A stretch of DNA of 64,000 nucleotides from Coprothermobacterota bacterium (lineage in GTDB: Bacteria; Caldisericota; JANLFM01): the NCBI GenBank assembly GCA_026389455.1, contig JAPLHV010000157.1, positions 10,786-74,785 of the forward strand, written 5' to 3'. The translations under genes were made by a program, and so were the position numbers. Each line of letters starts with the position of its first letter. The first letter of the stretch is position 1. Shown one piece after another: positions 21,296 to 62,206 of the stretch. The notes under the pieces were generated by a model. That model worked only from the letters and a program-made list of their open reading frames with translations. It was not told where the DNA came from and did not search any database.

Positions 21296-22005
21296 ATTTA
21301 GTTCCTTCTCATTACAAGTGGGTAACCTACCAGCCTGCGGCAGGAGAAGACATGCTGCCGCAGGCTGTCTAGTCCAGCTACCCTGTAAATAGCCCCCGGC
21401 AGGGTGTTCATGGCGATAATGGTCTTAAAGAGTCTTGTCGACCCTGGGATGGGACCGTGGCGCCCCAGTGCGGCATCCTATTCTCATGGATCTACCGCGC
21501 CGCATCGTTCTTGCACGACTATGCGATCCTCCCCAAAGAGAACCTCCCTCAAGCGGTTTGACTAGACAGCCCCGGCAGCTCGATAGCCCCCGGCAGCCCG
21601 ATAGCCCCCGGCAGCCCGATAGCCCCCGGCAGCTCGATAGCCCCCGGCAGCCCGATAGCCCCCGGCAGCCCGATAGCCCCCGGCAGCTTGATAGCCCCCG
21701 GCAGCTTGATAGCCCCCGGCAGGGTGTTCTGTGACATGCTGCCGCAAGTTGATTTGTTGTCGTCAGCCTTAATAATCCCAGAGACATTGTTTCTAGACAT
21801 GCTGCCGCAGGCTGTTCTGTAGACATGCTGCCGCAGGCTGTTCTGTGCCCACTCGGGATGAGAAAGAGCAAGAGACATGCTGCCGCAAGTAGACATGCTG
21901 CCGCAGGTAGACATGCTGCCGCAGGTAGACATGCTGCCGCAGGTAGACATGCTGCCGCAGGTAGACATGCTGCCGCAGGTAGACATGCTGCCGCAGGCTG
22001 TTCTG
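21296..22005 (+). repeat. Composite non-coding repeat region, copy 1 of the ~140-bp element plus tandem arrays
   Basis: Hairpin at 21331-21367; 18-mer atagcccccggcagggtg at 21389-21406; motif gggaccgtggcgccccagtgcggcat at 21451-21476; eight 18-bp AGCCCCCGGCAGCYCGAT units at 21567-21726; 26-bp and 18-bp AGACATGCTGCCGCAGGT arrays at 21790-22000. Confidence 0.9.
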
Positions 22006-23241
22006 TTAAGTATTGGCTGGTTTAGAGATACGGTTCATCAACCACCGCAAGAGATAGATGCAGATGCCGATCAAGACCAGAGCCAAGAGGACTTTCCCCA
22101 TCCCTTGAAGGAGGATTTGCACTCCTACCCAGACGCTTGAGATGTTTCCGAAACGCAGGGCCAAATCCAACAGCACGCCCCCAGCCAACACGGAACCGAT
22201 TTGGCCTGAGACATTGGCGCTGGCGGCAGGCATCATCAAGTAGTTATGGCGGTCTTCCTTCTGCCCCATGATGTGTACCAGGCGGGCGGACATCGGGAAT
22301 GAGGAGAGCCCGGCCGCCCCGATCAAGGGGTTGACCTTCAAGCCGGCCGCATGCAACCCCTTTCCTACCAGGATGCCGATGGCAGTGGAGAGAGCGAAGG
22401 CCAACAAACCGAGGGCGAAAATCAGCAAGGTGTCGGCTCGTAAAAAGATATCTGCTTTCATTGTGGATCCAACGGCGATGCCCAAGAGCAGTGTGACTAA
22501 GCCGGCCAGGGTTTCTTTAGCTGTTTTGGCTAACATTTCTGTGACGCCGGAGGTGGCCAAGATATTTCCAAACATCAAGGCGCCGATCAGTGGAATGCTC
22601 ATCGGGCTCAAGAAACTGGTCAAGATCACGATCATGTATGGGAACGTTTTGATCATCCCATCATTGATCTTCACGGCACTGATTTCCATGCGCACCATTC
22701 GCTCCTTCTTGGTTGTCAGAAGGCGCATGATGGGAGGCTGGATGATTGGAACGAGAGCCATGTAGGAATAGGCAGCAAGGGTCACCGTGCCCAGTATCTG
22801 TGGCGCCAATAAGGAAGTGACGAAGATGGATGTTGGCCCATCGGCGCTGCCGATGACGCCGATGGATGCTGCTTCGAAGAGACTGAATCCCAAGAGCAAG
22901 GCGACGATCATGCTGCCGAAGATTCCGATCTGGCCGACTGCCCCAAAGATGATCAACCACGGCTTTTCCAAGAGCGGCCGAAAATCCATCATTGCGCCGA
23001 TGGAGATAAAAATCAGGAGAGGGAAGAACTCGTTTACCACGCCGTACTGGAAGAGGAGATCGAGGAAGGAGCCCGTCTCAGCAAGGGGGGAGAGCGGAAG
23101 GTTGACCAGTAGGATGCCGATCCCGATCGGCAGAAGGAGGAGAGGCTCATATTTTTGACGGACGGCGAGGTAGGTTAGCAAGAGACCCACGAGGATCATC
23201 ACCGCTTGCTTGAGGGTTGGGAGGTAGATGAAGTTTTCCAT
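22006..23241 (-). CDS. Na+-translocating decarboxylase beta subunit paralog (OadB family), not adjacent to other decarboxylase subunits
   Basis: 411 aa, clearly homologous to the ORF at 18559-19677. Confidence 0.75.
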   Translation of the reverse strand: MENFIYLPTLKQAVMILVGLLLTYLAVRQKYEPLLLLPIGIGILLVNLPLSPLAETGSFLDLLFQYGVVNEFFPLLIFISIGAMMDFRPLLEKPWLIIFGAVGQIGIFGSMIVALLLGFSLFEAASIGVIGSADGPTSIFVTSLLAPQILGTVTLAAYSYMALVPIIQPPIMRLLTTKKERMVRMEISAVKINDGMIKTFPYMIVILTSFLSPMSIPLIGALMFGNILATSGVTEMLAKTAKETLAGLVTLLLGIAVGSTMKADIFLRADTLLIFALGLLAFALSTAIGILVGKGLHAAGLKVNPLIGAAGLSSFPMSARLVHIMGQKEDRHNYLMMPAASANVSGQIGSVLAGGVLLDLALRFGNISSVWVGVQILLQGMGKVLLALVLIGICIYLLRWLMNRISKPANT

Positions 23242-23448
23242 ATCGTGATCCTTTCTGAACCCGCGGATTGGTTTATTTCACGAATGGCGTTAGTATAGCT
23301 AATCTGAAGGCTGCATGCAGTCGAACGATCACCCTTCCTGTTGTTTGAGGGGAATTGAGCGAAAGATTGGATCCCCCATCTTCTCAACCATGAACTCAAG
23401 GCCTTAGAATGGTATAAAGATCCAGCGAATGAGAGGAGAAAGTGACGC

Positions 23449-24309
23449 TTGATTAGACCGTTCAAGTACAGCAAACCGCGTTTCTTGAGGGAAGCGCTGG
23501 AAGCCTTGGAAAAAGAGAATGCCCGAGCCCTGGCTGGTGGAAGCGATCTTTTGGTAGAGTTGCGGGAAGGGAAGAGCCAAGCAGAGCACATTGTTGATGT
23601 GAAAGCCATTCCTGAGCTAAGTTGTTTCTCGATTGGCAAGGATGGGATCATTATCGGGGGGCAGTTAACACTCAATGAATTAGCAGAATCCAAGGAACTT
23701 GGGCAAACATGTCCTATCTTGGGTGACGCAGCCAGGACGGTGGCCACGCCGCAAGTGCGCAACCGGGCTACCCTGGTTGGAAATCTATGCACTGCTTCCC
23801 CTGCGGCCGATTTGGCGCCTCCACTTTTCGTGTTAGGCGCCGCTGTGGTTGTCGCTTCAAAAGAGGGAGAGCAAAGAATCCCGATCCAGCAGTTCTTCCA
23901 AGGACCGAAAAAGAACTGCTTACAGCCTGGCCAACTGGTCCTGCGGGTAGAGATCCCGCCACGCTCCACTGGACGAGGCGTGTTCATGAAGAAATCGCGC
24001 GTGCGAGGACATGATCTGGCTACCATCAATGTAGCAGGCTGGACAAATCCTCAAGCCGGCATCCTGCGCATTTGCATCGGGGCTTGTGGTCCCACCCCGG
24101 TATTGCTGACGAGCAGCGATGAGCTCTATCAGCGGGCGGTTTGCCGTGATGAGCTTCTTGATGGATTGGCCACGCTCGCCCAGGACCAAATTGCCCCAAT
24201 TGACGACTTGCGGGCATCTGCTGCGTACCGCCGCAGTCTGGTTACTGTTTTCCTGGGTCGGATGGTGCGGATTCTTTTCCCGGAGGAAGGAGGCTGGCCT
24301 CATGTTTGA
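23449..24309 (+). CDS. Mo-hydroxylase FAD-binding subunit (second copy)
   Basis: AGGSDLL motif; TTG start 10 nt after GAGGAG; paralog of the ORF at 1189-2067. Confidence 0.75.
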   Translation: MIRPFKYSKPRFLREALEALEKENARALAGGSDLLVELREGKSQAEHIVDVKAIPELSCFSIGKDGIIIGGQLTLNELAESKELGQTCPILGDAARTVATPQVRNRATLVGNLCTASPAADLAPPLFVLGAAVVVASKEGEQRIPIQQFFQGPKKNCLQPGQLVLRVEIPPRSTGRGVFMKKSRVRGHDLATINVAGWTNPQAGILRICIGACGPTPVLLTSSDELYQRAVCRDELLDGLATLAQDQIAPIDDLRASAAYRRSLVTVFLGRMVRILFPEEGGWPHV

Positions 24310-24832
24310 TGAAACCCCACAGAACACCCTGCCGGGGGCTATCAAGCTGCCGGGGGCTGTTTACACGATCAGCGTTGAAGTAAACGGGAAAGCATGCACC
24401 GAGGAGGCGCCTGCTCAGATGACTTTGCTGCAATTCCTGCGCGAACGGCTATTTTTGACCGGGGCCAAGGAGGGTTGCGGAGTAGGGGAGTGTGGCGCCT
24501 GCACGGTGCTTCTAAATGGGCGAGCTGTTGATGCCTGTTTAGTCCTGGCAGTGGAGGCAGACCAGGCCAGTGTCCGCACGGTGGAAGGGGAAGCCAGGGA
24601 TGGAGAATTGACTCTCCTTCAGCGAGCCTTCATCGAGCACGGCGCGGTGCAATGCGGCTTCTGCACTTCGGGAATGCTTTTATCGGCACAGAGCTTGTTG
24701 GAGAGTAACCCTCATCCCAACAGAGAAGAGATCGTAGAAGCCATCTCCGGCAACCTTTGCCGCTGTACCGGCTACGTGCAGATTCTGGAGGCGATTGAAG
24801 CGGTTGGAGAGGGAATGGAGGAGGGCGGATGA
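24302..24832 (+). CDS. Mo-hydroxylase [2Fe-2S] subunit (second copy); N-terminal ~20 aa encoded by the dispersed repeat
   Basis: CGVGECGACTV, CGFCTSGM and CRCTGY motifs; ATG 24302 overlaps the upstream stop (ATGTTTGA); residues 6-17 (TLPGAIKLPGAV) are encoded by the CACCCTGCCGGGGGCTAT repeat. Confidence 0.75.
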   Translation: MFDETPQNTLPGAIKLPGAVYTISVEVNGKACTEEAPAQMTLLQFLRERLFLTGAKEGCGVGECGACTVLLNGRAVDACLVLAVEADQASVRTVEGEARDGELTLLQRAFIEHGAVQCGFCTSGMLLSAQSLLESNPHPNREEIVEAISGNLCRCTGYVQILEAIEAVGEGMEEGG

Positions 24833-27258
24833 GCGCTGATCAGGATTACAAATACATCGGCAAAGGGATCTCCCGCCTGGATGGGCCGGAGAAAGTAACC
24901 GGCAGCGCCATGTTCGTACACGACATGACCCTGCCGGGGATGCTCTATGGCAAGATGGTGAAGTCTCCCCACGCTTGCGCGCGCATCGTTTCCATCGATA
25001 TCAGCGAAGCGGAGAAGTCGCCGGGCGTGCGCGCTGTTCTCGTCGGTAGAGAGCTGCCCTACAAGGTTGGCATCTACATGATCGACAAAGACATCCTGGC
25101 CAAAGAGGTAGCCCGCTACCATGGAGAGCCGGTGGTGGCAATCGCCGCACAGAGCGAGTTGGCCGCCGAGGAGGCTTGTGCCAAGGTGAAGATTGTGTGG
25201 GAGGCGTTGCCCGCTGTGCTCGACCCGCGCGAAGGATTGTCTCCAGCAGCCCCCTTGGTTCATCCAGAGTTGGCGAGCTATAGCTACATGAAGGGTGTCT
25301 TTCAACCTCAACCCGGCACCAACATCTCCCACCACCAGAAGATCCGTAAGGGTGATGTGGAGATAGCTCTTGCCAAAGCGGACGTAGTTTGGGAAGCCAA
25401 GTTCTACAACCCTCCCGTGCAGCATGTTGCCATGGAGACGCACACCTGCATCGCTCAAGCTTTGCCCGGCTCCCAAGTTCAAATCTGGACTTCAGCCCAA
25501 TCTCCCTTCACCGTGCGCAACCTCTTCTCAGCCTGCTTCGGCATCCCTCATCAAAATATCCGTGTCCATGTTCCCTACGTGGGAGGCGGTTTCGGCGGAA
25601 AAGCCGGCATTCACCTGGAGCCGTTGGCATATCTCCTATCCCAAAAAGCGGGAGGGCGTCCAGTCAAACTGACCATGACCCGCGAAGAGGAGTTCGGCGC
25701 CATGCCTTCCCGCCAAGGTCTTTACAGCCAGTTCACCACTGGCGCCACGCGCGAAGGGAAGATCATCTCTTTGGTCGCAAAGTACATTTGGGACGCCGGC
25801 GCCTATGCGGACTATGGGGTAAATGTTGGGCGAGCGGCCTCCTATTCGGGAGCCGGTCCCTACGAAATACCGAACTGCCATATCGATTCTTTGGTGGTCT
25901 ATACCAATAAGGTGTTCGGCACAGCTTATCGCGGCTTCGGCCATTTGGAAGCGCTCTGGGGAATCGAGCGAAACATGGACATCGGCGCTCGCCGGCTTGG
26001 CTTGGACCCAGTGGAGTTCCGCCGGCGCAATGTGTTGCGTCCTGGAGCAAAGACGATTACAGGTGAGACAGTGACCGAGCACACCGGCCGTGTCGACCTC
26101 TGCTTGGAGAAAGTTGCCGAGGAGATCGGCTGGAATGGGATTCAGACGGAGGAGGAGAGGGCACAAGCGATGGCCGGCGGAAAGGTGCGGGGAAAGGGAG
26201 TGGCTCTGCTGCACAAAGCCCCGGCGATGCCTGTCTTCACTTCCAGCGCCGCCCTGCTGAAGTTCAACGAGAATGGCTCGGTGGATCTCCTCACCTCGAT
26301 CATCGACTACGGTCAAGGAACCTACACCGCTCTTGCTCAAGCTGCAGCAGAGGAGTTGAAGATGCCCATCGAGCGGATTCAAGTTCCCTGGGAAAGTGAC
26401 ACTGCTATGACTCCTTATGACTGGCAGACAGTCGCCAGCCGCGGCGCTTTCATGGGCTGCAAGGCAGTGATTGCAGCGGCCCGTGACGCGTTGCAGCAGA
26501 TCAAGGAAACTGCCAGTCAGGTATTGCGGGCGCCGGTGGAAGAGCTGGTGTGCCGGGACGAGGTAGTTTTCGTCGCCCATCGCCCAGAAGAATGCCTTTC
26601 CTATCGAGAGGTAGTGATGGGGTACAGCTACCCCAACGGGAACTCCATCGGTGGACCGGTGATCGGCCGAGGTCACTACATCGCCCAGGGGCTGACCCAT
26701 CTTGACTTGGAAACAGGGCAGGGTTTACCCGCTCTGGATTGGACCTACGGCGCCCATGGGGCAGAGATCGAGGTGGATCTGGACACTGGGGAGATCACCG
26801 TGCTCAACCTGGCTACCGCTCTTGACGTCGGCCAGGTGCTAAACGCCCAATCCCTGCGTGGGCAGATCATCGGCGGCGTGGTGCAAGGGTTGGGGAGCGC
26901 CTTGTTGGAGGAGTTCCGCTTCTCACCCCAAGGCCGGCTGCTGAATGCCGGATTCGTCGATTATAAGATTCCAACCAGCAAGGATCTGCCCAGGAAGATG
27001 AGCCAGCATATAATCCTGACGGAACAGTTGGACGGGCCGTATGGAGCCCGCGGAGTGGCTGAACACCCCATGATATCAGTGCCAGGCGCGATCGGGAATG
27101 CTCTTTATGATGCCCTGGGAATTGATTTCTTCGAGTTGCCCCTGAATGCGGAGCGCGTTTGGCTGGGAATCCAGCGAAAGAGAAGTGAGACCCAGGACAC
27201 CCTGCCGGGGGCTATCAAGTTGCCGCGGGCTATACACTTGGATAAGGGAGGCGCCTGA
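24829..27258 (+). CDS. Mo-hydroxylase molybdopterin-binding large subunit (second copy)
   Basis: 809 aa; GGGFGGKAG motif; ATGA start/stop overlap; last ~20 aa (QDTLPGAIKLPRAIHLDKGGA) are encoded by the dispersed repeat. Confidence 0.85.
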   Translation: MSADQDYKYIGKGISRLDGPEKVTGSAMFVHDMTLPGMLYGKMVKSPHACARIVSIDISEAEKSPGVRAVLVGRELPYKVGIYMIDKDILAKEVARYHGEPVVAIAAQSELAAEEACAKVKIVWEALPAVLDPREGLSPAAPLVHPELASYSYMKGVFQPQPGTNISHHQKIRKGDVEIALAKADVVWEAKFYNPPVQHVAMETHTCIAQALPGSQVQIWTSAQSPFTVRNLFSACFGIPHQNIRVHVPYVGGGFGGKAGIHLEPLAYLLSQKAGGRPVKLTMTREEEFGAMPSRQGLYSQFTTGATREGKIISLVAKYIWDAGAYADYGVNVGRAASYSGAGPYEIPNCHIDSLVVYTNKVFGTAYRGFGHLEALWGIERNMDIGARRLGLDPVEFRRRNVLRPGAKTITGETVTEHTGRVDLCLEKVAEEIGWNGIQTEEERAQAMAGGKVRGKGVALLHKAPAMPVFTSSAALLKFNENGSVDLLTSIIDYGQGTYTALAQAAAEELKMPIERIQVPWESDTAMTPYDWQTVASRGAFMGCKAVIAAARDALQQIKETASQVLRAPVEELVCRDEVVFVAHRPEECLSYREVVMGYSYPNGNSIGGPVIGRGHYIAQGLTHLDLETGQGLPALDWTYGAHGAEIEVDLDTGEITVLNLATALDVGQVLNAQSLRGQIIGGVVQGLGSALLEEFRFSPQGRLLNAGFVDYKIPTSKDLPRKMSQHIILTEQLDGPYGARGVAEHPMISVPGAIGNALYDALGIDFFELPLNAERVWLGIQRKRSETQDTLPGAIKLPRAIHLDKGGA

Positions 27259-28814
27259 TGCAACGCCTCGTCGTGAAGAAAGACCAATACCGCGACTCGG
27301 TTTCCCTGATGCAGCTCTCATTGGAGCTGAAGGAAGGGGCGGGTCTGGAGGAAGCATTCGTGGCGATGGGCGTCCCCGCCAACCGGGAAATCCTCGCCAA
27401 GATGGGCATTTCCAAGGATCAGTTGGATGGGGTTGGCCCCAATGATCTGCTGATTGCCCTCTTGGCGGAAGATGACGCGTCGATCGAAAAAGCTTTGCTA
27501 GCCATCCCAGCATTGATGGAGGGAACCTGCGCGCAACCCGAAGGAGGCGAAGCCTACCAGCCGCGCACTCTTGAGCAAGCGCTGCGCCAACTTCCTCAGG
27601 CCAATCTGGTGCTGATCTCCAATCCGGGTCCCTATGCCTCTGGTGAAGCGAGAAGGGCCTTGGAGAAAGGGCTCCACGTGATGATCTTCTCGGACAATGT
27701 GCCCCTCGAGGAGGAGATCGCTCTGAAGAAACTGGCCCAGCAGCGCGGTCTTCTATTGATGGGTCCGGATTGCGGCACCGCATTGCTCAACGGCAAACCT
27801 CTTTGTTTCGCCAACGTCGTGCCATCCGGAGCGATCGGCATCGTTGGCGCCTCTGGCACCGGAATTCAGGAAGTCAGTTGCGCCATCGCCCGGTTAGGAG
27901 AAGGGGTTTCCCAAGCCATCGGTACGGGCGGACGCGATTTGAGCCGGGAAGTGGGCGGCTTGATGGTGGCTGAAGGGATTAAGGCGTTGGCCCAAGATTC
28001 GCAGACTCAAGTCATCGTGGTGATCTCTAAACCGCCCGCCCCGGAAGTAGCCAAACGGGTCACTGACCAGTTGGTCTCCTGTGGAAAACCTAGCGTGGTC
28101 TGTTTTATTGGGGAAAAACAACAATCCAACGAGGGAACCCTCTGGTTCGCAGGCAGTCTCGCTATGGCTGCCTCTTCGGCTGTCGCCCTTCGCCGCGGGG
28201 AAACACCCGGTCCACTCATTCAGGATGATAACCTGTTGGAGCGAATCGCCACCGAGGAAACTTCCGGGATGAGTGAGAAGCAGCGCTTCCTGCGCGGACT
28301 CTATACCGGGGGCACCCTGGCTGATGAAGCCATTTGCCTGCTGGAGCAGGAAGTTGGCCCTATCTATTCCAACATCCATAAAGAAAAGGAGTTCCAGTTG
28401 ACAGATCCAACCCGCTCGCGGGAGAACACGATCATCGATTTGGGAGATGATTATTTTACCCGAGGGAAGCCGCACCCAATGATTGATCCTTCTGGGCGGG
28501 CCACTCGGATGATAGAGGAGGCGGAAGATCCTGAAGTGGCTGTGCTCTTATTGGACCTGGTCTTGGGATATGGATCGCACCCCGATCCGGCTGGAGCGAT
28601 CTACTCGGCAGTGACTGGAGCAAAAGAAGCGGCTCGCGCCAGGGGCGGGCATTTGGCGGTGATCGCCTCCATCACCGGAACCGCCGGCGATCCGCAAGGG
28701 CTGCAGCGCCAGCGGGAAACTCTGGAAAGGGCTGGGTGCCGCGTGATGGCTTCCAACTGGGAGGCTGCCACCCTGGTTGAACGCATCCTGCAAGATCGGG
28801 CGGTGCGGTCATGA
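27258..28814 (+). CDS. fdrA: FdrA-like protein (CoA-binding / succinyl-CoA-synthetase-alpha-like fold)
   Basis: N-terminus KKDQYRDSVSLMQLS...MGVPANREIL matches the E. coli FdrA N-terminus as recalled from memory; ATG overlaps the upstream stop. Confidence 0.65.
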   Translation: MQRLVVKKDQYRDSVSLMQLSLELKEGAGLEEAFVAMGVPANREILAKMGISKDQLDGVGPNDLLIALLAEDDASIEKALLAIPALMEGTCAQPEGGEAYQPRTLEQALRQLPQANLVLISNPGPYASGEARRALEKGLHVMIFSDNVPLEEEIALKKLAQQRGLLLMGPDCGTALLNGKPLCFANVVPSGAIGIVGASGTGIQEVSCAIARLGEGVSQAIGTGGRDLSREVGGLMVAEGIKALAQDSQTQVIVVISKPPAPEVAKRVTDQLVSCGKPSVVCFIGEKQQSNEGTLWFAGSLAMAASSAVALRRGETPGPLIQDDNLLERIATEETSGMSEKQRFLRGLYTGGTLADEAICLLEQEVGPIYSNIHKEKEFQLTDPTRSRENTIIDLGDDYFTRGKPHPMIDPSGRATRMIEEAEDPEVAVLLLDLVLGYGSHPDPAGAIYSAVTGAKEAARARGGHLAVIASITGTAGDPQGLQRQRETLERAGCRVMASNWEAATLVERILQDRAVRS

Positions 28815-30259
28815 GCGTGGTCGACCTTTTCGGGCAATCCTTGCAAGTGATCAACATCGGTCTAGAGTCATTCGCCCAGAACCTCCGACAGGAGAGAGTG
28901 CCAGTGGTCCAGATGGACTGGCGGCCGCCGGCGGCTGGGGCGGAGGGAGTAGGGGAGACACCCTTGCGCATTGACCGCAAACAAGCCAACCGGGAAGCCG
29001 TCGACCGCTTGCTGCGCGGGCTGCCCGTCTTGACGGGCGTCTCCACAGCTGGAGCAGTGATCCCCGGGATGCGCAAGGATCTCTTCTTGCATGCCGGACC
29101 TCCCATCAGTTGGGAACGGATGTGCGGACCGATGCGGGGGGCAGTGATCGGTGGGATCCTCTTCGAAGGGCTGGCGGCGAGCGAGGAAGATGCCGAGCAA
29201 CTGGCCGCCTCCGGGGCGATAGCCTTCGAGCCCTGCCATGAACACGACGCTGTGGGACCGATGGCAGGCGTTACCACCTGGAGCATGCCGGTATGGGTGG
29301 TAGAGAACCGCACCTTCGGCAACCGCGCCTACTGCACCTTGAACGAGGGACTTGGAAAGGTGTTGCGCTACGGCGCCTACGCTCCTCCGGTCATCGAACA
29401 TTTGCGCTGGATGGCGGAGGAGTTGGGACCGGTCTTGGCTTTGACGATGGAGCGTCATGGGCCGTTGGACCTACGCGCGCTGATCGCTCAGGCCCTGCAG
29501 ATGGGCGATGAAGGTCACAATCGAAGTCGTGCCGGCACCTCTCTACTGATCCGCGAATTGGCGCCCGAGTTGGTTCGCCTGAAAGTGAAGCGAAAGAAAC
29601 TATCTGAAGTTCTCCGCTTTCTTCATAGCAACGACCATACCTTTCTCAATCTTTCCATGCCTTCGGCCAAGTGCATGCTGGATGCAGCCAACGGTGTGGA
29701 GGGCAGCTCGATGTTGGTGACTATGACCCGCAATGGCACGGATTTCGGCATTCGGCTGGCCGGCCTCCCCGAGCGCTGGTTCACCGCGCCAGCCAACTTG
29801 GTGCGCGGCCTCTATTTTCCCGGATACAGCGAATCGGACGCGGCCCTTGACATCGGCGACTCAGCCATCACCGAGACAGCCGGGCTGGGGGGGTTCGCCA
29901 TGGCCGCTGCTCCTGCCATCGTCCAATTCGTCGGCGGAACCCCGCAGGATGCTCTGCGCCTGACCCAGGAGATGTATGAAATCACCTTGGCGGAAAGCCA
30001 GAGCTGGCAGATCCCTAACCTCGGCTTCCGTGGAACGCCCAGCGGGATCGACCTCTTCCGTGTGCTGACCAGCGGCATCCTTCCATCCATCAATACGGGC
30101 ATCGCCCATAAAGATCCAGGCGTGGGAATGATCGGGGCCGGTCTCGTACAGCCGCCCTGGAACTGTTTTCAGTCTGCCTACCAGGCTTACGTGCAGCAGT
30201 ACGCCGCTACTCTTAGCGGAAATGGAGATAACCAACGAATCAAGGAGGAGAAACAATGA
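28811..30259 (+). CDS. DUF1116 (YlbE-like) protein
   Basis: 482 aa; conserved tail GLGGFAMAAAPAI...NTGIAH shared with the ORF at 1-394; located after the fdrA-like gene as in the E. coli fdrA-ylbE arrangement. Confidence 0.55.
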   Translation: MSVVDLFGQSLQVINIGLESFAQNLRQERVPVVQMDWRPPAAGAEGVGETPLRIDRKQANREAVDRLLRGLPVLTGVSTAGAVIPGMRKDLFLHAGPPISWERMCGPMRGAVIGGILFEGLAASEEDAEQLAASGAIAFEPCHEHDAVGPMAGVTTWSMPVWVVENRTFGNRAYCTLNEGLGKVLRYGAYAPPVIEHLRWMAEELGPVLALTMERHGPLDLRALIAQALQMGDEGHNRSRAGTSLLIRELAPELVRLKVKRKKLSEVLRFLHSNDHTFLNLSMPSAKCMLDAANGVEGSSMLVTMTRNGTDFGIRLAGLPERWFTAPANLVRGLYFPGYSESDAALDIGDSAITETAGLGGFAMAAAPAIVQFVGGTPQDALRLTQEMYEITLAESQSWQIPNLGFRGTPSGIDLFRVLTSGILPSINTGIAHKDPGVGMIGAGLVQPPWNCFQSAYQAYVQQYAATLSGNGDNQRIKEEKQ

Positions 30260-31128
30260 AGCTGATTGACCTGACTATTCCTTTCGGCATTGCCACCCCG
30301 CCCTGGCCGACCTATGAGCCGCTGCAGTTGAAGTATTTTAAACGGTTGGCGCCCAACGGCGCCAACGGGCAACTGCTGACCACATCCAACCACGTCGGCA
30401 CTCACCTCGACGGGGAGATTCACTTCTACACACCGGGAAAAGACATCGCCTCGCTCTCCCTCGATTTCCTGGTCCATGAGGGAGCGGTCGTAGACCTTTC
30501 CGATTGCACGACTGACTACGACATCTACACTTCAAAACAGGTGGAGGAACGGGTAGAGGTCCGTGAAGGAGATATCTTGATCATTCACACCGGCTTCCAC
30601 CATTACGGCTGGGATCAACCCACGGCCAACGAGGTCCGTTACATGGTGCAGCACCCAGGCCCGGATGTGGAGTTCGTGGAGTGGGCAAAAGCCAAGAAGC
30701 TGCGTTGGATCGGGGTGGATTGCGGAAGCGCCGACCATCCCATGAATACCATCATCCGCAATTGGATGCCTGTTCAAGCCAAGGAGGCAGACGCTTTTTT
30801 CCGCCAGAAGTTCGGCGTCTCTCTGGAGGAGCGCTTTTCCCCGGATAAGTATCAGATGATGCACACACGGCTTTTCAGCCAAGGCATTATCCACGCCGAA
30901 TGCGTGGCCGGCGACATCGATCTGCTGCTCAACCAGCGGGCCATTATCGGATGTTTCCCCTGGCGTTTCGTGGACGGTGAATCCAGCATCAGTCGGATTG
31001 TGGCGATGGTCGAGGATGGACGTTACGAAGAATTGATGAAGAAGAAGGCGATGGCCTCGCTGACTCGCTTCGGCGACGTGGCAGGCGCCAGGAACCCCTG
31101 GATCCACGAACAGGCGCGAAAAAAGTAG
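30256..31128 (+). CDS. Cyclase-family metal-dependent hydrolase (kynurenine formamidase-like)
   Basis: HVGTHLDGEIH motif; ATGA overlap with the upstream gene; paralog of the ORF at 421-1182. Confidence 0.7.
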   Translation: MKLIDLTIPFGIATPPWPTYEPLQLKYFKRLAPNGANGQLLTTSNHVGTHLDGEIHFYTPGKDIASLSLDFLVHEGAVVDLSDCTTDYDIYTSKQVEERVEVREGDILIIHTGFHHYGWDQPTANEVRYMVQHPGPDVEFVEWAKAKKLRWIGVDCGSADHPMNTIIRNWMPVQAKEADAFFRQKFGVSLEERFSPDKYQMMHTRLFSQGIIHAECVAGDIDLLLNQRAIIGCFPWRFVDGESSISRIVAMVEDGRYEELMKKKAMASLTRFGDVAGARNPWIHEQARKK

Positions 31129-31354: not shown

Positions 31355-32320
31355 GTGGAGATAGAATCAGGAAACCTCGTCCAAGGTTGGGTGCGCGAGT
31401 TCCTCGAGCATCTGGAGATCGAGAAGAACTACTCGCAGTTGACGCTCCTGACCTACGGCAAACTGCTTCATCGCTTCACCGGTTGGTTGAATGAACGGCA
31501 ACTTGTCACAAAAGACGCCGCTGAGTTGGATCTAGAGACGATTCGGCAGTATCGCCTCTACCTTGCCCGCCTTCGCACGGATCAAGGCAAACCGCTGAAG
31601 AAAGTGACCCAAGCCTACCATGTCATTGCCCTGCGCTCCTTATTGCGCTTCCTGATCACTCAGAAACGGCTCTCAGTACTGTCTCCCGAGTTAGTGGAGC
31701 TTCCCAAGCTACCCCAGCGATCGGTAAACTTTCTCTCGATTGAGCAAATCGAAGATCTGCTGAAAATGCCGGACATTGTCTCGATCAGCGGTTTGCGCGA
31801 CCGAGCGATGATGGAAACACTTTTCAGCACAGGGTTGAGAGTCTCCGAGTTAGTCTCGTTGAACTGTGAACAGGTCAACTTGGATCGTCGAGAGTTCGGC
31901 GTGGTGGGAAAGGGTGGAAAGGCGCGAGTGGTCTTTCTATCTCAAGAAGCAGTTTTCTGGTTGAGACAGTATTTGGAGAAGCGCAATGACGAGTGCCACC
32001 CCCTCTTCATCAGTCACAGCGAGCGAGGGAAGCAAAGCCTCGACCGCCGTCTGACCGCTCGCTCGGTGGAGCGGCTGGTGCGAGCCTACGGCCAACGCGC
32101 ACGCTTACCTTTCGAGATCAAACCACACACCTTGCGTCATTCTTTCGCCACCGACTTGCTTTTTGCCGGGGCAGACATCCGTTCGGTTCAGGAAATGCTA
32201 GGACACGCCAGCATTCGTACTACTCAGGTGTACACGCATGTCACTGATCGCCAACTTCGTGATGTCCATCGCGCCTTTCACGGACATTCTCGCAGTGACT
32301 CTTCGGAGCAAGATAAATGA
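31355..32320 (+). CDS. Tyrosine site-specific recombinase, XerC/XerD family
   Basis: C-terminal catalytic region HTLRHSFATDLL...LGHASIRTTQVYTHV (R-H-R-Y tetrad context); N-terminal SAM-like domain; GTG start. Confidence 0.85.
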   Translation: MEIESGNLVQGWVREFLEHLEIEKNYSQLTLLTYGKLLHRFTGWLNERQLVTKDAAELDLETIRQYRLYLARLRTDQGKPLKKVTQAYHVIALRSLLRFLITQKRLSVLSPELVELPKLPQRSVNFLSIEQIEDLLKMPDIVSISGLRDRAMMETLFSTGLRVSELVSLNCEQVNLDRREFGVVGKGGKARVVFLSQEAVFWLRQYLEKRNDECHPLFISHSERGKQSLDRRLTARSVERLVRAYGQRARLPFEIKPHTLRHSFATDLLFAGADIRSVQEMLGHASIRTTQVYTHVTDRQLRDVHRAFHGHSRSDSSEQDK

Positions 32321-32324
32321 TTAC

Positions 32325-32712
32325 GGTTCCTTTTCATTTCAAGTGGGCATCCTACCAGCCTGCGGCAGCATGTCTTCTCCTGCCGCAGGCTGTTTAGTCC
32401 AGCTTCCCTGTAAATAGCCCCCGGCAGGGTGTTCATGGCGATGATGGTCTTTGAAGAGTCTTGTCGGCCCTGGGATAGTCCCAGGGATAGTCAAGCCCTT
32501 TTGCTCTTGAGGTCTCACCGACCCCGATCTGGTTTGCGCCGGAATGGTCCTCGTAGGGGCGGGTTTGAAACCCGCCCACGCACGAGCTGTCTCGGCATAG
32601 TGATGACTCATTCTCCAGAACACCCTGCCGGGGACTCCTAGGGGCGACGTATGCGTCGCCCCTAGGAGGGCTATCGAGCTGCCGCAAGTTGACTTGTTGT
32701 CGCTTACCCACC
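32325..32712 (+). repeat. Composite non-coding repeat region, copy 2 of the ~140-bp element (direct orientation relative to copy 1)
   Basis: Region 32345-32480 is about 90% identical to 21318-21455; hairpin at 32356-32392 with inverted loop; 18-mer at 32414-32431; 10-bp-stem hairpin at 32557-32577; perfect 13-bp IR at 32637-32666; shared end motif CTGCCGCAAGTTGAYTTGTTGTCG. Confidence 0.85.
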
Positions 32713-47437: not shown

Positions 47438-47577
47438 TGCTCCTCCCTCTGCCAGATAATGGTCGAAGAGGTGAGGGTTGAGTGACCTAGTGGTTTAGTG
47501 GTTGAGTGATCTAGTAAATAATAAATCTTGATCTTACTCAACTACTTAATTACTCAACTACTGAACTACTGAATTAC
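47438..47577 (+). repeat. AT-rich 140-bp element with two GTTGAGTGA direct repeats on the left and two inverted TACTCAAC on the right
   Basis: Local GC content is visibly far below the flanks. The inverted-repeat structure was read directly. The element supplies the stop codon of the 70-aa upstream ORF. Confidence 0.6.
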
Positions 47578-47786
47578 TCGTTTGCCTCTTCGGTTGTCAG
47601 ACCTACTCGTCGGGCTAGTACGTCCAAAGGCTCCCATTGGCCTGTCAAAAGGCCAGCCAGCCACGCTTCTTCGGTTGAGAAGATCTTCCTCAGGATGGCG
47701 ATCTCCACTCCAATGGATGTCCGTGGGAATCCGTTGGGCAAGCGATCTAAAGCGCCAGCCAATCTTTCATATTCATTCTCATCCAT
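47574..47786 (-). CDS. Small ORF (70 aa), possibly the detached N-terminal part of the Fe-S protein gene
   Basis: ORF in the same orientation immediately upstream of 46757-47437; its stop lies within the AT-rich element. Confidence 0.3.
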   Translation of the reverse strand: MDENEYERLAGALDRLPNGFPRTSIGVEIAILRKIFSTEEAWLAGLLTGQWEPLDVLARRVGLTTEEANE

Positions 47787-47848
47787 CTCGTTATCCTCCT
47801 GGATTAAGCCGGTGTAATCACCCTGTCGGGGGCTAATTCATTGCCAAG

Positions 47849-48652: not shown

Positions 48653-49174
48653 ATGAACAAGAACCTGGTCCGGCAATGGGCGAACGTGATCGCCGTCTTG
48701 GCGATGATCGTGATCAACATTCTGGCCAACGCCTTGCCCTTCAACGGGCAAAATACCGGCGCCATCTCGGACCGATTTGCCGTCTTCTTCGTGCCGGCCG
48801 GCTACGTTTTCTCCATTTGGGGTTTGATCTACATCGGCCTGCTCCTTTTCGCCATTTACCAAGCTCTTCCCAGCCAGCGCGACAACCCGCGTCTGGTCAA
48901 GATTGGCTATTGGTTTGCCTTCAGCAGCCTGGCTAACATTGCTTGGCTCTTCCTCTGGCATTATCTGCAGTTCACCAGGACCATCTTCGCCATGCTGGCC
49001 CTGCTGATCTCGCTCCTGGTTATCTATCTGCGACTGGGGATTGGAAAAGAAAACGTTCCTTCCAGCGAGCGATGGATGGTGCAGACGCCTTTCAGCATCT
49101 ACCTGGGATGGATCTCGGTGGCCACTATTGCCAATAGTAGCCAGCCTGCGGCAGCATGTCTTCTAATTGCTTGA
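48653..49174 (+). pseudogene. Tryptophan-rich multi-TM membrane protein; reading frame ends inside a half-hairpin repeat, and the downstream ORF 49167-49454 continues as a membrane protein in another frame
   Basis: The C-terminus ...SSQPAAACLLIA* is encoded by CAGCCTGCGGCAGCATGTCTTC at 49142-49163. The hydrophobic ORF 49167-49454 overlaps it by 8 nt in a different frame. Confidence 0.35.
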
Positions 49175-49641
49175 TTTCCTGAAATGGAATGCCTGGGGCA
49201 TTTCTCCGGAGATCTGGGCTGTGATCCTGCTCGTCTTAGCGACATTGCTCTCCAGCGCGATGTCTTTCCGCCGGGGGGACGTGGCCTACTCTTTGGTGAT
49301 CGCCTGGGCGTTTATAGGCATCGCCTTGAAACAGGCGGCGACCCCGCTGGCGTCCATCGCTGCTTGGGCGGCAACCGCTGTCGTGCTCGTCGATCTGGCG
49401 GCAGCAAGCATCCTCCATGCGCGGCGCCGGATACCTTCCCGAGAGAATGCGTGATCCTGCAAGTGCATGTTCCCAAGAGTGAAGAAGTGAAATCAAAGGT
49501 GCATAAGTTGGAGCTGAAATGATCCCCTGAGTCGGAGGATCGAGTACAATCGACAACAGGACATCAAAGAGACAGAGGCCGCTGGGTAATACCCCAGCGG
49601 CCTCATGAAAGGGGCTTGCGGGCCCGGGAAGCGAGCGAGGC

Positions 49642-54441: not shown

Positions 54442-55299
54442 ATGCAGATTCCTGATTATCACGTCCACCCCGACTACTCCATCGACGCCAAGGGGTCGAT
54501 CCAAAGATACGCCACTACTGCGGCTGCGCGCGGGCTGCCGGAGATATGTTTTACTACCCACCTCGACCTTGATCCGCTTCGAGCTACAGAAGACAGGTGG
54601 ATCCGTGATCGGGGGGAAAGACGAAGCTTCCGCACCCTGAATTGGCTTGACCATTATTGGGAGGATATCGACCGTGCCCAGTCCGAAGTGAACGGGCAAG
54701 TCCTCTTGAAGCACGGATTGGAGATCGATTATTTTCCCGGTTTTGAGACATTCGTCCGACCCGCTCGAGAGTCCTATCCCTGGGACTTTGTCTTGGTCTC
54801 AGTACACTGCCTGGAACACATTGCCATCGCCGGGCAAGAAGAGAGTGGCCCATATTTAGCGAGGCACACCCCGGAGGAAACAGCCGAGGCCTATGTGATG
54901 GCAGTCCGGGATGCTATTGCCAGCGGTTTTGGTCATGCTTTGGCCCATCTTGACTACTTCAAGCGCCAAGTCAGCCCAGGCTTTCGCCCGCGCTTCCTGG
55001 CCGCCCTCGCTCCGCGATTGCCTGAAATCCTTGAACTGCTGCAGCGTGCAGGAATGGCCATGGAGATCAATACGCGCGCCATCCGCACCTATGGGTTGGG
55101 TGAACCATTTCCTGGCACGGAGACGCTTGCGCTGGCGGTCCGCCTGGGTGTTTCCAGAATCACCATCGGCTCGGACAGTCACCGCCCCGAAGAGTTGGGC
55201 AACTGTTTTGATGAAGCCCGCCAGTTTGCTTTAGAGGCCGGCTTTACTACGGCACTCACCTATCAGAAAGGGGAGATCAATGGTTCTTTTCAACTCTAG
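54442..55299 (+). CDS. PHP-family histidinol-phosphatase (HisK/HisJ type)
   Basis: N-terminal DYHVHPDYSIDA metal-binding motif typical of the PHP domain. Confidence 0.7.
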   Translation: MQIPDYHVHPDYSIDAKGSIQRYATTAAARGLPEICFTTHLDLDPLRATEDRWIRDRGERRSFRTLNWLDHYWEDIDRAQSEVNGQVLLKHGLEIDYFPGFETFVRPARESYPWDFVLVSVHCLEHIAIAGQEESGPYLARHTPEETAEAYVMAVRDAIASGFGHALAHLDYFKRQVSPGFRPRFLAALAPRLPEILELLQRAGMAMEINTRAIRTYGLGEPFPGTETLALAVRLGVSRITIGSDSHRPEELGNCFDEARQFALEAGFTTALTYQKGEINGSFQL

Positions 55300-56272
55300 G
55301 CTTTCCTTGACCAGCCTTCCCACTCCGCTGGAAGCGCTCCCTACTCTCTCCCGCCAACTGGGGGTTGAATTATGGATCAAGCGTGATGACCTCACTTCCC
55401 CCGCGGGAGGTGGAAATAAGGTTCGTAAGCTGGAATTCCTGCTGGCTGATGCGAACTCGCGTAAAGCGACTGCGGTCATTACCCTGGGCGCCGTGCAGTC
55501 CAACCATTGCCGTCAAACTGCTCTCTTGGCTGCTAAGCTGGGGCACGAAGCTCACTTGGTCTTGATCGGCGAGGAGCCGATAGATAGACAGGGGAACCTC
55601 TTGCTGGATACCTTATCCGGCGCCACCTTGCACTTTGGAGCGCGAACCTTGGAAGAGGGGCGAGCGATCGCCCAACAGTTGATGGAGACATTGCGGGCAT
55701 GCGGCAAGGAACCCTACCTGATCCCCTATGGAGGTTCCGACCCAATCGGCGTGCAAGGGTATGTGGCTGCCTGGGCCGAACTACAGGAGCAAGCCCAAGC
55801 GCGCTCGCTCTCCTTCGACTGCATCGTCCATGCTTCCTCTTCGGGAGGCACCCAAGCCGGTTTGTTGGTGGGCCAACAGGTCTATGGCGGCAGCGGACAA
55901 GTGATCGGCATCAGCGTGGGGCCGCCCGCGACCACTCTGGCCCGGGAAGTAGCCGCCCTGGCCGGTCAAACCGCTCAAGCCATCGGCTTGGATTCTTTTA
56001 GCCTATCTTCAGCGCCAATTATCCTGGATCAGTACATCGGCCCAGGATACGCGCTCCTCGACGAGACCACCTACGCCGCCATTCGGCGATTGGCGCAGAC
56101 CGAAGCGATCCTTCTCGATCCTGTCTACACAGGGAAAGCGTTCACTGGTTTCCTGCGATTGGCTAGCGAAGGAAGGCTAGGGAAACGCGCCTTGTTCTGG
56201 CATACCGGTGGAGCGCCTGCCCTTTATAGCTACGCCGATCAATTGACAAGCAGTCAGCCTGCGGCAGCATGA
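55280..56272 (+). CDS. PLP-dependent D-cysteine desulfhydrase / ACC-deaminase-family enzyme; last residues encoded by the repeat
   Basis: LPTPLE...IKRDDLT...GGNKVRKLEFLLADA matches the DcyD family N-terminus. The C-terminus SSQPAAA* is encoded by CAGCCTGCGGCAGCATGA. Confidence 0.7.
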   Translation: MVLFNSRLSLTSLPTPLEALPTLSRQLGVELWIKRDDLTSPAGGGNKVRKLEFLLADANSRKATAVITLGAVQSNHCRQTALLAAKLGHEAHLVLIGEEPIDRQGNLLLDTLSGATLHFGARTLEEGRAIAQQLMETLRACGKEPYLIPYGGSDPIGVQGYVAAWAELQEQAQARSLSFDCIVHASSSGGTQAGLLVGQQVYGGSGQVIGISVGPPATTLAREVAALAGQTAQAIGLDSFSLSSAPIILDQYIGPGYALLDETTYAAIRRLAQTEAILLDPVYTGKAFTGFLRLASEGRLGKRALFWHTGGAPALYSYADQLTSSQPAAA

Positions 56273-56400
56273 CAGGACACCCTGCCGGGAGCTATCTACT
56301 TGCCGGGAGCTATCTACTTGCCGGGAGCTTGCCAAACTTGAAAGCCCGCGGCAGCACGATAGCCTGCGGCAGCACGATAGCCTGCGGCAGCAAGACACTG
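56255..56400 (+). repeat. Repeat cluster: half-hairpin, 18-mer, 3x CCGGGAGCTATCTACTTG and 2x CCTGCGGCAGCACGATAG
   Basis: Direct reading of the sequence. Confidence 0.85.
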
Positions 56401-59241: not shown

Positions 59242-59404
59242 CGGCTCAACCAATCAGCGCTAATTTGTGGGACACAGTTCACGAATTCCACTCTTTCTCC
59301 CGTCCTTTGCATTTTGAGTCAGTAACACCCTGCCGGGGGCTTTTAACTTGCCGAGGGCTATAATGCTGCCGGGGGTCATATTGTAGCACCGCCGGCGAGG
59401 GCGT

Positions 59405-60785: not shown

Positions 60786-60882
60786 TCAATATCATGCTGC
60801 CGCAAGTTATCATTTTCCCCGAAGGCTCAGGAAAATGCAAGCTATTCTCCCCTTTCTTGGGGTGAGCCCTTCAAGCTAGACA

Positions 60883-61051
60883 AGCCCCCGGCAACTTGAT
60901 AGCCCCCGGCAACTTGATAGCCCCCGGCAACTTGATAGCCCCCGGCAACTTGATAGCCCCCGGCAACTTGATAGCCCCCGGCAACTTGATAGCCCCCGGC
61001 ACCCGGCAACTTGATAGCCCCCGGCAACTTGATAGCCCCCGGCAGGGCGAT
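60883..61051 (+). repeat. Tandem array of about nine 18-bp units AGCCCCCGGCAACTTGAT (one 25-bp variant)
   Basis: Direct reading; the track ORF 60896-61942 begins inside it (MIAPGNLIAPGN...), but the true degV start is downstream. Confidence 0.9.
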
Positions 61052-61090
61052 ATCGTTGAGCTTCCTTCCCAGAGGCATTACAATAACTAT

Positions 61091-61942
61091 ATGAGCGAAT
61101 ACTCCGTTGTGGTGGACAGCGTCGCCGATCTTCCCCGGGAGACGGTGGGAACATTGGGGATCGTAGAGGTTCCTTTCCCGGTGGTGTTTGGTAATCAAAC
61201 CTTTAAAGACAAAGTTGACCTGAAGTCCAAACAGTTCTTCCAGATGTTGCGCAGCAAGCTGGATTATCCCAAAACATCCGCCCCACCGGTGGGTGAATAC
61301 CTGACGATCTTCCAACGCCTGATCTCGGAAGGGCGCAAAGTATTAACCTTGACCATCCCGGCGAGGAACAGCGGCGCCTACCAGTCGGCGACGTTGGCGC
61401 GGTCTCTTCTGGAGCATGGTGAGGTGGAAATCGTCGATAGCGGTTCGATCTCGATGGGGTTGGGGTTGATCGCTATGGAGGCGGTGGAGGCGGTCGGCCA
61501 GGAAAGAACCAGGGAACGTATCTTGGAGCGTATCCAGCAAGTCATCGCCCGTGTCCAAATATTGGCTGTAATCCCTGATCTGACCTGGGCAGCCCGCGGG
61601 GGGCGAGTCTCGTCGGCGGTCGCGCGGATTGCCTCCTTGTTGAATGTCCACCCGATGATCCGCCTGCGCCATGGGGTGATCGAGCTGGTGAGCAAGGCCA
61701 ACCCCTCCCAGACCATCGACAAACTGATTCAGCGGGTCAAGGCCGCAGTGGGCAAGCAGCCGGCTGGTATTGCGGTGATGCATGGGGATAGCAGCGAGCA
61801 GGCCTACGAGTTGAAACGACGCCTTCTACTGGAGATCAACTGCCCCAAGGAAATCCTGATCTCCGAGGTGGGACCGGCTCTTGGCTCACATTCCGGCCCG
61901 GACGTTCTAGCGGTAGCGTTTTACCCTCTCTCGCCTGTGTAA
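61091..61942 (+). CDS. DegV-family fatty-acid-binding protein
   Basis: N-terminus MSEYSVVVDSVADLP and overall DegV layout; the start was chosen at the first Met after the repeat array. Confidence 0.7.
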   Translation: MSEYSVVVDSVADLPRETVGTLGIVEVPFPVVFGNQTFKDKVDLKSKQFFQMLRSKLDYPKTSAPPVGEYLTIFQRLISEGRKVLTLTIPARNSGAYQSATLARSLLEHGEVEIVDSGSISMGLGLIAMEAVEAVGQERTRERILERIQQVIARVQILAVIPDLTWAARGGRVSSAVARIASLLNVHPMIRLRHGVIELVSKANPSQTIDKLIQRVKAAVGKQPAGIAVMHGDSSEQAYELKRRLLLEINCPKEILISEVGPALGSHSGPDVLAVAFYPLSPV

Positions 61943-62206
61943 AGCCCCTCCATTCTGAGCCTTCTCCTCCCGCTGCTTCCCTGCTCTGTTGCTGGGACTG
62001 CCGCCCCCATGGCATCTTTGCTTGTGCTGGGATGGGACCGTGGCGCCCCAGTGCGGCATGCATGAATCGTATCGACTTGTACTGTTGACACCCTGCCGGG
62101 GGCTATGTTGTTCTTGGCCGGTCAGACCTTTTCGCGGAATTCCACCTTGGCGCAAACGACCAATCAAATGATCAGTCCATCAAACGACCATTAGAGTGAA
62201 GAGCTT

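Follow-up and report, generated by a model that had tools for sequence, protein, structure and literature searches.

We describe a family of very short dispersed repeats in a 64,000-nt stretch of DNA from a Coprothermobacterota bacterium (GenBank assembly GCA_026389455.1, contig JAPLHV010000157.1). This whole stretch is referred to as the window, and all coordinates are those of the window. The repeat units are 18-22 bases long and come in two related types, A and B. The A unit reads CACCCTGCCGGGGGCTAT or, with its 5' extension, (ACAGRA)CACCCTGCCGGGGGCTAT, and the B unit reads AGCCTGCGGCAGCATGTCT. The two share 14 of 18 positions in an alignment (CA[AT]GCTGCCG[GC][GA]GGCT[AG]T), and intermediates as well as A/B hybrid units were found.

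With up to three mismatches on both strands, CACCCTGCCGGGGGCTAT has 27 matches in the window, compared to 0.08 in shuffled sequences (shuffle maximum 2). All 27 matches are located within 21389-62106 and none before 21389; nine copies are exact, including those at 21389, 21709, 24325, 27198, 32414, 44799 and 62089. The first 21 kb of the window are free of A and B repeats and have a GC content of about 50%, against about 57% for the remainder. These counts and the arrays recovered by Tandem Repeats Finder (TRF) bear out the original prediction, made from the letters of this DNA alone, of a dispersed GC-rich 18-mer family occurring as single units and as 18- and 25-nt arrays. The positions given there check out, apart from one copy of an associated 26-mer that starts at 62034 and not at 62024.

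The left border of the A elements was assessed with 65 distinct first units, all read on the CACCC strand. Their 5' flank turned out to be strongly conserved (A-C-A-G-R-A), and the complete left end of the A element comprises 24 nt (ACAGRACACCCTGCCGGGGGCTAT). The first A unit is followed by 0 to 8 more units of the form C-N-R-G-Y-TGCCGGGGGCT-R-T, with arrays of one (31 cases), two (18), three (6), four (1), five (1), six (6) and nine units (1). The sequence immediately 5' of a unit is usually CA(G/T)RA, which may be either a target preference or a part of the element. Units within an array are homogeneous, with a 4-nt variant peculiar to each array (CGGG or CAAG at 21583-21708, CAAGT at 60899-61031, and CTAG, CGAC or CGAG elsewhere), which argues for local expansion and against a series of independent insertions. 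A period of 25 nt was also seen, in arrays at 44726 and at locus L022, and the existence of such arrays suggests that the period is set by the place of slippage. Of the unit's six reading frames, only the one with TAG..TGA is closed, which leaves five open.

Folding was computed for single-stranded DNA. Single A units gave free energies (dG) of -2 to -5 kcal/mol with z-scores (z) between +1.4 and -1.9. The C-rich strand of A arrays showed no excess structure (z +1.1 and +1.3), and the G-rich strand of one A array a modest excess (z -3.5). The two-unit element at 24315-24365 forms a weak hairpin (dG -11.4, z -1.9), and the ends of the A unit have only a weak AACA..TGTT symmetry. Inverted pairs of B units form a strong hairpin (dG -18.5, z -5.5). 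A scan of the window against Rfam at the gathering thresholds yielded tRNA-Pro only and no RNA family over the repeats.

Three places in the window carry mosaic clusters. The cluster at 21297-22005 starts with a module termed M1 (21297-21450), which consists of an inverted B pair that forms a hairpin of 13 bp (21331-21368) plus one A unit on the minus strand (21389-21406). It continues with module M2 (21451-21566), which begins with the 26-mer GGGACCGTGGCGCCCCAGTGCGGCAT and is common to loci L033, L009, L034 and L023, and with a minus-strand A array of about nine 18-nt units (21567-21726; TRF: 21570-21722, 18 nt x 8.5), whose terminal unit starts with CACCC and whose internal units start with CGGGC, CGAGC or CAAGC. 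Module M3 (about 21727-21795) and two plus-strand B arrays within 21794-21997 complete the cluster; the latter, 26 nt x 2 at 21794-21846 and 18 nt x 6.9 (TAGACATGCTGCCGCAGG) at 21873-21997, were picked up by TRF and had not been listed as arrays before. The second cluster, at 32323-32711, is specific to the window. It contains a second copy of M1 (32323-32476) with the B hairpin and an A unit at 32414-32431, module M4 (32526-32620), a hairpin at 32553-32579 that starts with GTAG like a repetitive extragenic palindrome (REP), an A unit at 32621 that is split by a nested perfect palindrome of 34 nt (32636-32669), and an M3-like end. The modules M1-M4 recur in different combinations at different loci. 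The third cluster, at 56254-56394, comprises one B unit on the minus strand, three A units on the plus strand and three B units on the minus strand (TRF: 56283-56329 and 56343-56392), and can fold as a long imperfect hairpin (dG -31.8, z -1.9).

The GTAG hairpins constitute a separate REP-like family, GTAGGGGCGGGTTTCAAACCCGCCC(CTAC), plus GTAGGGGCGACGCATGCGTCGCCCCTAC, which is found in the same mosaics at many loci (z -3.6). The nesting of a REP-like palindrome in the A unit at 32636-32669 indicates that the REP-like and the A families are distinct.

The remaining units between genes of the window are simpler in structure. On the plus strand, the 25-nt-period array at 44726-44816 (TRF: 44726-44813, 25 nt x 3.5) is made of the 5' part of the A unit plus GTGGTAATAT, ends with an exact A unit and separates the divergent HTH_25 and LysE genes. 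A single degenerate A unit with two mismatches (47819-47836, plus strand) is located 13 nt downstream of an ArsR/DUF2087 gene, and a three-unit A array (59326-59384, plus strand) lies upstream of a radical-SAM gene, at a position that is kept in the metagenome-assembled genome (MAG) of isolate ELA551 (locus L030). Between the convergent DegV and MatE genes, 62034-62106 (plus strand) contains the 26-mer at 62034-62059 and an exact A unit at 62089-62106. The 26-mer had been placed at three positions; it is exact at 21451 and 62034, and the copy at 42678 is a variant with three mismatches. Finally, a minus-strand A array of about nine units of the CAAGT type, one of them irregular with 25 nt, is found at 60881-61049 between divergent enolase and DegV genes (TRF: 60883-61044, 18 nt x 8.6). 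The DegV gene on its right has an apparent promoter, TTGAGC-N17-TACAAT, at 61050-61093, ending about 6 nt before the ATG, a position which suggests a leaderless transcript; the array is immediately upstream of the predicted -35 element.

Most copies had been considered intergenic, which is an overstatement, since 24325-24360, 27198-27233, 42678-42703, 49141-49165 and 56254-56271 all lie in open reading frames (ORFs). The two-unit element of 39 nt at 24322-24360 (plus strand) is located in the N-terminal coding region of the gene for a 2Fe-2S subunit (24302-24832). The start at 24302 has a strong Shine-Dalgarno sequence, its ATG overlaps with the stop codon upstream of it, and NCBI annotates the same protein of 176 aa. 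The element encodes NTLPGAIKLPGAV, which is a 13-aa insertion compared to all orthologs (MLDETPH-YTISVEVNG). Two units (36 nt, 27198-27233, plus strand) form the C-terminal tail, ..DTLPGAIKLPRAIHLDKGGA before the stop, of the molybdopterin (molybdenum) subunit encoded by ORF 24829-27258, the end of which reads ...QDTLPGAIKLPRAIHLDKGGA and stop. The window's subunit has a length of 809 aa and that of JAPLHW 815 aa, compared to 793 aa in orthologs without the tail. Both elements are situated at translationally coupled gene junctions. As read from the sequence, the B unit at 56254-56271 provides the last codons and the stop of the PALP ORF 55280-56272 (...SSQPAAA).

At 49141-49165 (minus strand), a B unit within a 22-nt insertion causes a frameshift in a conserved gene for a membrane protein of about 255 aa. 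ORF 48653-49174 codes for the first 163 residues, and the remainder is in another frame, 49167-49454, which aligns with the C-termini of the homologs. A product truncated in the identical way is encoded by at least 15 independently assembled contigs from at least six sequencing runs, and is thus no assembly artefact; the truncated form appears to be fixed across several samples. The repaired protein gave no family in a Pfam scan, and its homologs number more than 4,000. We consider the split gene 48653-49454 to be likely either a pseudogene or the gene of a shortened protein. The 26-mer variant at 42678-42703 (minus strand) is inside the RimO gene (42580-43884, minus strand), where the TRAM domain has a lineage-specific insertion of 11-14 aa (DAALGCGGPRAQTN) containing the 26-mer motif.

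Similar cases were found in genes at other loci of the lineage. In a starch synthase (L006), an in-frame array of 108 nt (6 x 18) adds 36 aa in the form of (SPRQLD)n and splits the Glycos_transf_1 domain; the ortholog in L046 lacks this array. The C-domain of RarA/MgsA (L037, assigned by Pfam) contains three in-frame units encoding 18 aa (DTLPGAIKLPGAIKLPGA) directly before GYLYGHDYPGHF, a putative insertion. According to Pfam, a 21-nt unit is also present in frame in the core-binding domain of sigma-54 (L038), and a CHAD protein has in-frame arrays in three places (L026). As read from the sequence, two or three in-frame units are located in the N-terminus of a putatively ALDH-like protein, for which there is no alternative downstream start codon. 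An IS256/Mutator-family transposase gene (L040, JAPLHW010000233, 3-1286) carries a 35-nt insertion of two units that is out of frame. The same gene has a second, compensating frameshift about 130 nt downstream of the insertion; it is probably a dead insertion sequence (IS) copy. Because 18 is a multiple of three and five of the six frames are open, arrays in genes can persist as hexapeptide repeats. In loops and tails these would be repeats of TLPGAI/KLPGAI or SPRQLD, and insertions whose length is not a multiple of three would break the gene. The possibility that the motif is simply part of a coding region conserved in homologs can be dismissed, as the units are insertions relative to the homologs.

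In order to compare occupied and unoccupied sites, we used four loci that are syntenic with 19-35 kb of the window: L060 (GCA_037130295.1, 89-93% identity to the window), L063 (JAPLHW, 87-91%), and L061 and L062 (from ENA and Logan, 84-85%). At 24322, L061, L062 and L063 are empty, with CCCACA directly followed by YTACACG, L060 has one unit of 21 nt, and the window has 39 nt. At 27198, the site is empty in L060, L061 and L062 (native ...CCCATGA followed by ACGTATCGGATAG), and the element comprises 36 nt in the window and, at the identical point, 54 nt (three units) in L063. At about 30240, it is the window that is empty, together with L061 and L062; L063 has one B unit there and L060 a hybrid array of 69 nt. 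The two copies of M1 differ from each other by a single A unit of 19 nt, inserted between CCATGA and TTACAGG. None of the five resolved junctions has a target-site duplication. Orthologous arrays that differ by one 18-nt unit were found as well (L006 versus L046, and L007 versus L010).

Where the window has the clusters at 21294-22014 (720 nt) and 32325-32711 (386 nt), every relative has only 15-66 nt. The flanks of the clusters are 93-98% identical to L060. Module M1 at 21297-21450 is absent from the site in L060, L061 and L063, and at 32323-32711 the relatives have just 42-64 nt. By this comparison, the two clusters are recent gains in the lineage of the window. Over the same 13 kb, L061 and L062 are free of A and B cores. 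Filled and empty sites between genomes of 84-93% identity and clusters found in the window only are in agreement with the prediction of an actively spreading family. Judged from these alignments, the family has evidently been active on the timescale of 5-15% nucleotide divergence.

The same alignments revealed recombination. The window and L060 are 95-99% identical at 24.9-26.9 kb, and their identity drops to 72-87% at 27.0-29.8 kb. In the latter stretch, L060 is more similar to L063, and the window to L061. Such a mosaic ancestry indicates homologous recombination between related species. The edges of the 27-30 kb block are about 100-400 nt away from the repeat sites 27198 and 30240 and do not coincide with them.

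A species-level scan of 596 Gb, with one genome per species, showed that the motif is not confined to the window. The exact 18-mer is abundant in three MAGs: JAPLHW01 ('Coprothermobacterota bacterium', Lac Pavin), CAYXFH01 and JBAXQG01 (isolate ELA551). Other genomes have scattered single matches at about chance level, which was estimated as roughly 17 in 596 Gb. The window is from a fourth, related genome with 88% identity to an ELA551 contig over 1.9 kb, and the exact 18-mer is thus present in four species. About 12 JGI metagenome contigs contain the repeat family, too. The lineage is an isolated one, with identities of RimO homologs falling from 87% to 50% outside of it.

These results suggest that the 18-mer is probably the hallmark of a family of very small, non-autonomous insertional repeats that is specific to this lineage, and whose units expand locally and would be copied in trans. 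The filled and empty sites show that one or two units (19-39 nt) have evidently been copied into new sites without target-site duplication, be it between genes, inside other repeats or inside genes, in frame or out of frame. Once there, the units evidently expand and contract by 18 nt at a time, so that arrays hold 2-9 copies; these steps would most likely be due to slipped-strand mispairing or unequal recombination. Dispersal would be due to a trans-acting enzyme encoded elsewhere in the genome, the leading guess for which is a single-strand HUH/Y1 transposase, either IS200-like or a REP-associated tyrosine transposase (RAYT). IS200/IS605 elements and RAYTs use HUH/Y1 single-strand transposition and insert without target duplication (PMC3116915); the lack of target duplications and the conserved 5' CAGRA flank of the A/B family resemble this mode. 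The elements are probably selfish or neutral. The damage done to genes, namely the frameshift in the membrane protein and the insertion into the IS256 transposase, argues for selfish spread, and remodelled gene ends, changed intergenic spacing and short patches of homology for recombination would be incidental effects.

Several observations weigh against this interpretation. No RayT homolog was detected by phmmer (--max) with the E. coli RayT in ORFs of at least 60 aa from the window and about 0.56 Mb of other loci, i.e. about 0.62 Mb in all (best E-values 0.9 and 0.17), although a query with a single sequence may miss divergent RAYTs. For the window, this agrees with the original prediction, which had noted the lack of a RAYT gene: the sizeable ORFs are all housekeeping genes according to Pfam, and no transposase is among them. 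All-versus-all clustering of the ORFs from 43 loci of the lineage did not reveal a recurrent transposase next to the repeats, and the largest clusters consisted of array ORFs. The 18-mer has zero matches in viral contigs, and single units fold too weakly to stand out as HUH substrates. The presence and absence of units at 27198 and 30240 conflict with the average tree, and given the mosaic local genealogies, some of the apparent gains may be alleles moved by recombination. Moreover, all genomes compared are MAGs or metagenome contigs. Finally, several empty sites resemble an end of the element: the one in sigma-54 has a 9-10-nt match to the element end (TAACACCCTG), the one in starch synthase reads GCCGGG..TGTTC, and others read CATGA/AC. 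With respect to these sites, homology-guided copying fits as well as or better than classical transposition.

The tyrosine recombinase gene at 31355-32320 was considered as a candidate for the mobiliser and dismissed, since it is found in synteny in all relatives, the unit-free L061 and L062 among them. It looks like a housekeeping gene of the XerC/D type, and its position directly upstream of the cluster at 32323 is probably coincidental.

The resemblance of empty sites to element ends leads to an explanation without any dedicated transposase, in which existing copies serve as templates for template switching, break repair or short-patch gene conversion. The starting points would be native sites that by chance are like a unit end, and slippage would follow. 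Such a process could explain why the site in sigma-54 is flanked by a duplicated TAACACCCTG, and why the empty site in starch synthase (TGCCCGGCCAAGG / GCCGGGCATTGTTC) is like the core and the end of a unit. At 27198, the native CCCATGA/AC reads CCCAGGA/CAC in the window, as if a patch of the flank had been replaced, and at about 30240 native sequence was replaced and not merely interrupted. The hybrid A/B units, the clear recombination among the relatives and the failure to find either target duplications or a transposase point in the same direction. On the other hand, the microhomologies were picked out post hoc at a handful of sites without statistics, and some sites, such as 24322 and the one in M1, have only 3-4 nt in common with the unit. 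Specific recognition is suggested instead by the high copy number and by the strong conservation of the 24-nt left end, and we know of no well-documented case in which unaided template switching has spread one 18-mer so efficiently. We regard this explanation as unlikely, albeit as a serious rival with an appreciable chance of being correct.

The units could also be moved by a dedicated and so far undescribed bacterial system that writes a sequence of about 18-21 nt beside CAGRA-like sites and reiterates it. A templated 'repeat writer' of a reverse-transcriptase-like or integrase-like kind, or an HUH enzyme whose substrate is unusually small, may be candidates for such a system, which we consider distinctly unlikely to exist. 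If it did, steady insertion of hexapeptide repeats would remodel loops and termini of housekeeping proteins in a deep-branching lineage.

We also assessed whether the units are true REPs, arranged as bacterial interspersed mosaic elements (BIMEs) and moved by a RAYT whose gene lies elsewhere in the genome, as was proposed in the original prediction, which called the family REP/BIME-like. The units are indeed short, GC-rich and present in both orientations in mosaics with other modules, the inverted B pairs form strong hairpins, and insertion without target duplication fits HUH chemistry. Bona fide GTAG hairpins occur alongside them, so that a RAYT may well exist in these genomes; by their sequence, these hairpins are better candidates for RAYT substrates than the 18-mer. 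A stable hairpin is confined to the GTAG family and the inverted B pairs. The A units lack a stable palindrome, and instead of a 5' GT(A/G)G they have A-C-A-G-R-A, with GTAG present only in the GTAGGGGCGGGTTTCAAACCCGCCC family. Neither are they extragenic, as exemplified by the units at 24322, 27198, 49141 and 56254 and by the related 26-mer in RimO. They occur as singles or direct tandem arrays and not as the inverted doublets of REPINs, although B units do pair in this way in M1. The mosaic clusters recall BIMEs in their recurring modules, without the regular alternation and with direct arrays. Considering also that no RAYT was found in about 0.62 Mb and that a REP-like hairpin is nested in an A unit as a distinct family, we judge the movement of true REPs by a RAYT to be improbable.

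A selected functional signal, be it a protein-binding site, a sigma-54-like promoter, a terminator, an RNA-stability element or a DNA-uptake sequence, is the least probable of these explanations and in our view very unlikely. In its favour, the exact 18-mer is kept in at least four species while flanking non-coding DNA diverges, the lineage has sigma-54, the unit junctions, as read from the sequence, spell GGCA-N8-GC and GG-N10-GC, inverted B pairs directly follow genes, and recombination among relatives would suit uptake-sequence drive. Against it, the units interrupt a conserved gene as well as a transposase, are found in frame within enzymes, have no consistent orientation to neighbouring genes, and are dispensable at these sites given 13 kb of a close relative free of them. 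Specifically, a sigma-54 promoter with GG-N10-GC across the junctions was rejected on account of this inconsistent orientation and of the copies in coding regions, B hairpins do not qualify as intrinsic terminators as they are not followed by a T-run, and uptake sequences spread by point mutation and not by insertions of 21-108 nt and tandem arrays as seen here.

Having weighed these explanations, we compared the family, taken as insertional repeats copied in trans, to known small repeats. In its behaviour it is close to the small dispersed repeats (SDRs) of Nostocaceae, which are reportedly very small mobile repeated elements of less than about 30 nt, with near-identical copies at non-conserved positions, insertion into other repeats and no target duplication. 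To our knowledge, cyanobacterial SDRs do not have a known mobiliser. The A/B family displays all of these traits, including positions that vary between relatives, a 19-nt unit inserted into the repeat module M1 and an association with tandem arrays, which does not imply common ancestry. It differs from SDRs in that it is found in another phylum, has an unrelated sequence and a weak hairpin, forms 18-nt arrays of the unit itself, and resides in frame in housekeeping genes.

REPs and REPINs have in common with the family the short, GC-rich, dispersed units in both orientations, the module mosaics and the absence of target duplications, and REPs of P. fluorescens SBW25 also form tandem higher-order arrays (PMC3116915); the differences are those given above. 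Rickettsia palindromic elements (RPEs) lie in frame in unrelated housekeeping genes, where the added peptide segments are apparently tolerated, and are palindromic single-copy insertions of about 100-150 bp that are like MITEs, i.e. miniature transposable elements with inverted repeats (PMC10969869). The in-frame insertions of 36 aa in starch synthase and 13 aa in the 2Fe-2S subunit, both absent from orthologs, are comparable, except that the units here are 18-21 nt long, that arrays add (TLPGAI)n or (SPRQLD)n, and that neither size nor palindrome is that of an RPE. Assignment to the MITEs themselves was rejected based on inserted forms of 19-39 nt, no target duplication, weak end symmetry and the absence of a parent IS among the sequences found.

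With variable-number tandem repeats (VNTRs) such as the MIRUs, the family shares head-to-tail arrays, copy differences of whole units (0 or 1 versus 2 at 24322; 0, 2 or 3 at 27198) and the overlap of gene ends in operons (24322 and 27198). MIRU units of Mycobacterium have 40-100 bp and cyanobacterial STRR units have 7 bp. We know of no report that either inserts de novo as a single unit into coding sequence. The NIMEs of Neisseria are mosaics of modules bounded by the dRS3 20-mer (approximate length), the blocks of which vary between strains; dRS3 is an inverted-repeat site used by a phage or an IS110-type recombinase, and Correia elements are named alongside. Intergenic mosaics of interchangeable modules, a short repeat and an implication of recombination are common to both, but a comparable recombinase or phage link was not found here, the viral contigs being devoid of the 18-mer. 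The units are also not a clustered regularly interspaced short palindromic repeat (CRISPR) array, as had been stated before, because they abut without spacers; no cas genes are among the ORFs of the window. DNA uptake sequences (DUS/USS) were discarded as a class since the units arise as insertions of 19-108 nt and form tandem arrays. The combination of an 18-nt unit, equivalent to six codons, with tandem expansion and frequent residence in coding regions is unusual.

For very small repeats of less than 30 nt, five syntenic genomes with exactly defined empty and filled sites represent unusually clean material, which includes insertions of single units of 19-22 nt and copy-number steps of 18 nt. 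Repeat DNA adds in-frame hexapeptide arrays to starch synthase, RarA, sigma-54 and xanthine-dehydrogenase subunits and rewrites gene ends, a route to protein length variation that was earlier stressed mainly for Rickettsia RPEs. The family also matters for the annotation of MAGs, where it can lead to spurious ORFs, shifted annotated starts and stops and broken short-read assemblies. This is relevant for a lineage as poorly known as this one, whose nearest RimO homolog from outside is only 50% identical. In the ORF clustering, arrays yielded spurious ORF families. Several short-read contigs (among L053-L058, L030 and others) end inside or beside a repeat unit, and the repeats appear to fragment short-read assemblies.

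Another type of repeat in these genomes consists of 8-mer arrays (TAGTGGTT / AAGTGGTT), often followed by an inverted array (TACTCAAC). They are located downstream of genes, in the window at 47476-47585 and 21263-21300 and also in L008, L032, L044, L060, L061 and L063. Two opposed arrays would be expected from their sequence to pair as a long hairpin. Unlike the A/B units, the 8-mer array at 21263-21300 has a counterpart at the orthologous position of every relative.

The first part of the window (1-21000; also L065 and L066) is a compact plus-strand cluster of about 20 kb with genes for xanthine-dehydrogenase-type subunits, an amidohydrolase, an aminotransferase, a nucleoside ABC transporter and a carboxyltransferase/OAD-beta. 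It partly duplicates genes at 23449-31128 and 22006-23241 and is probably a more recently acquired paralogous island. Short-read contigs run through this region unbroken.

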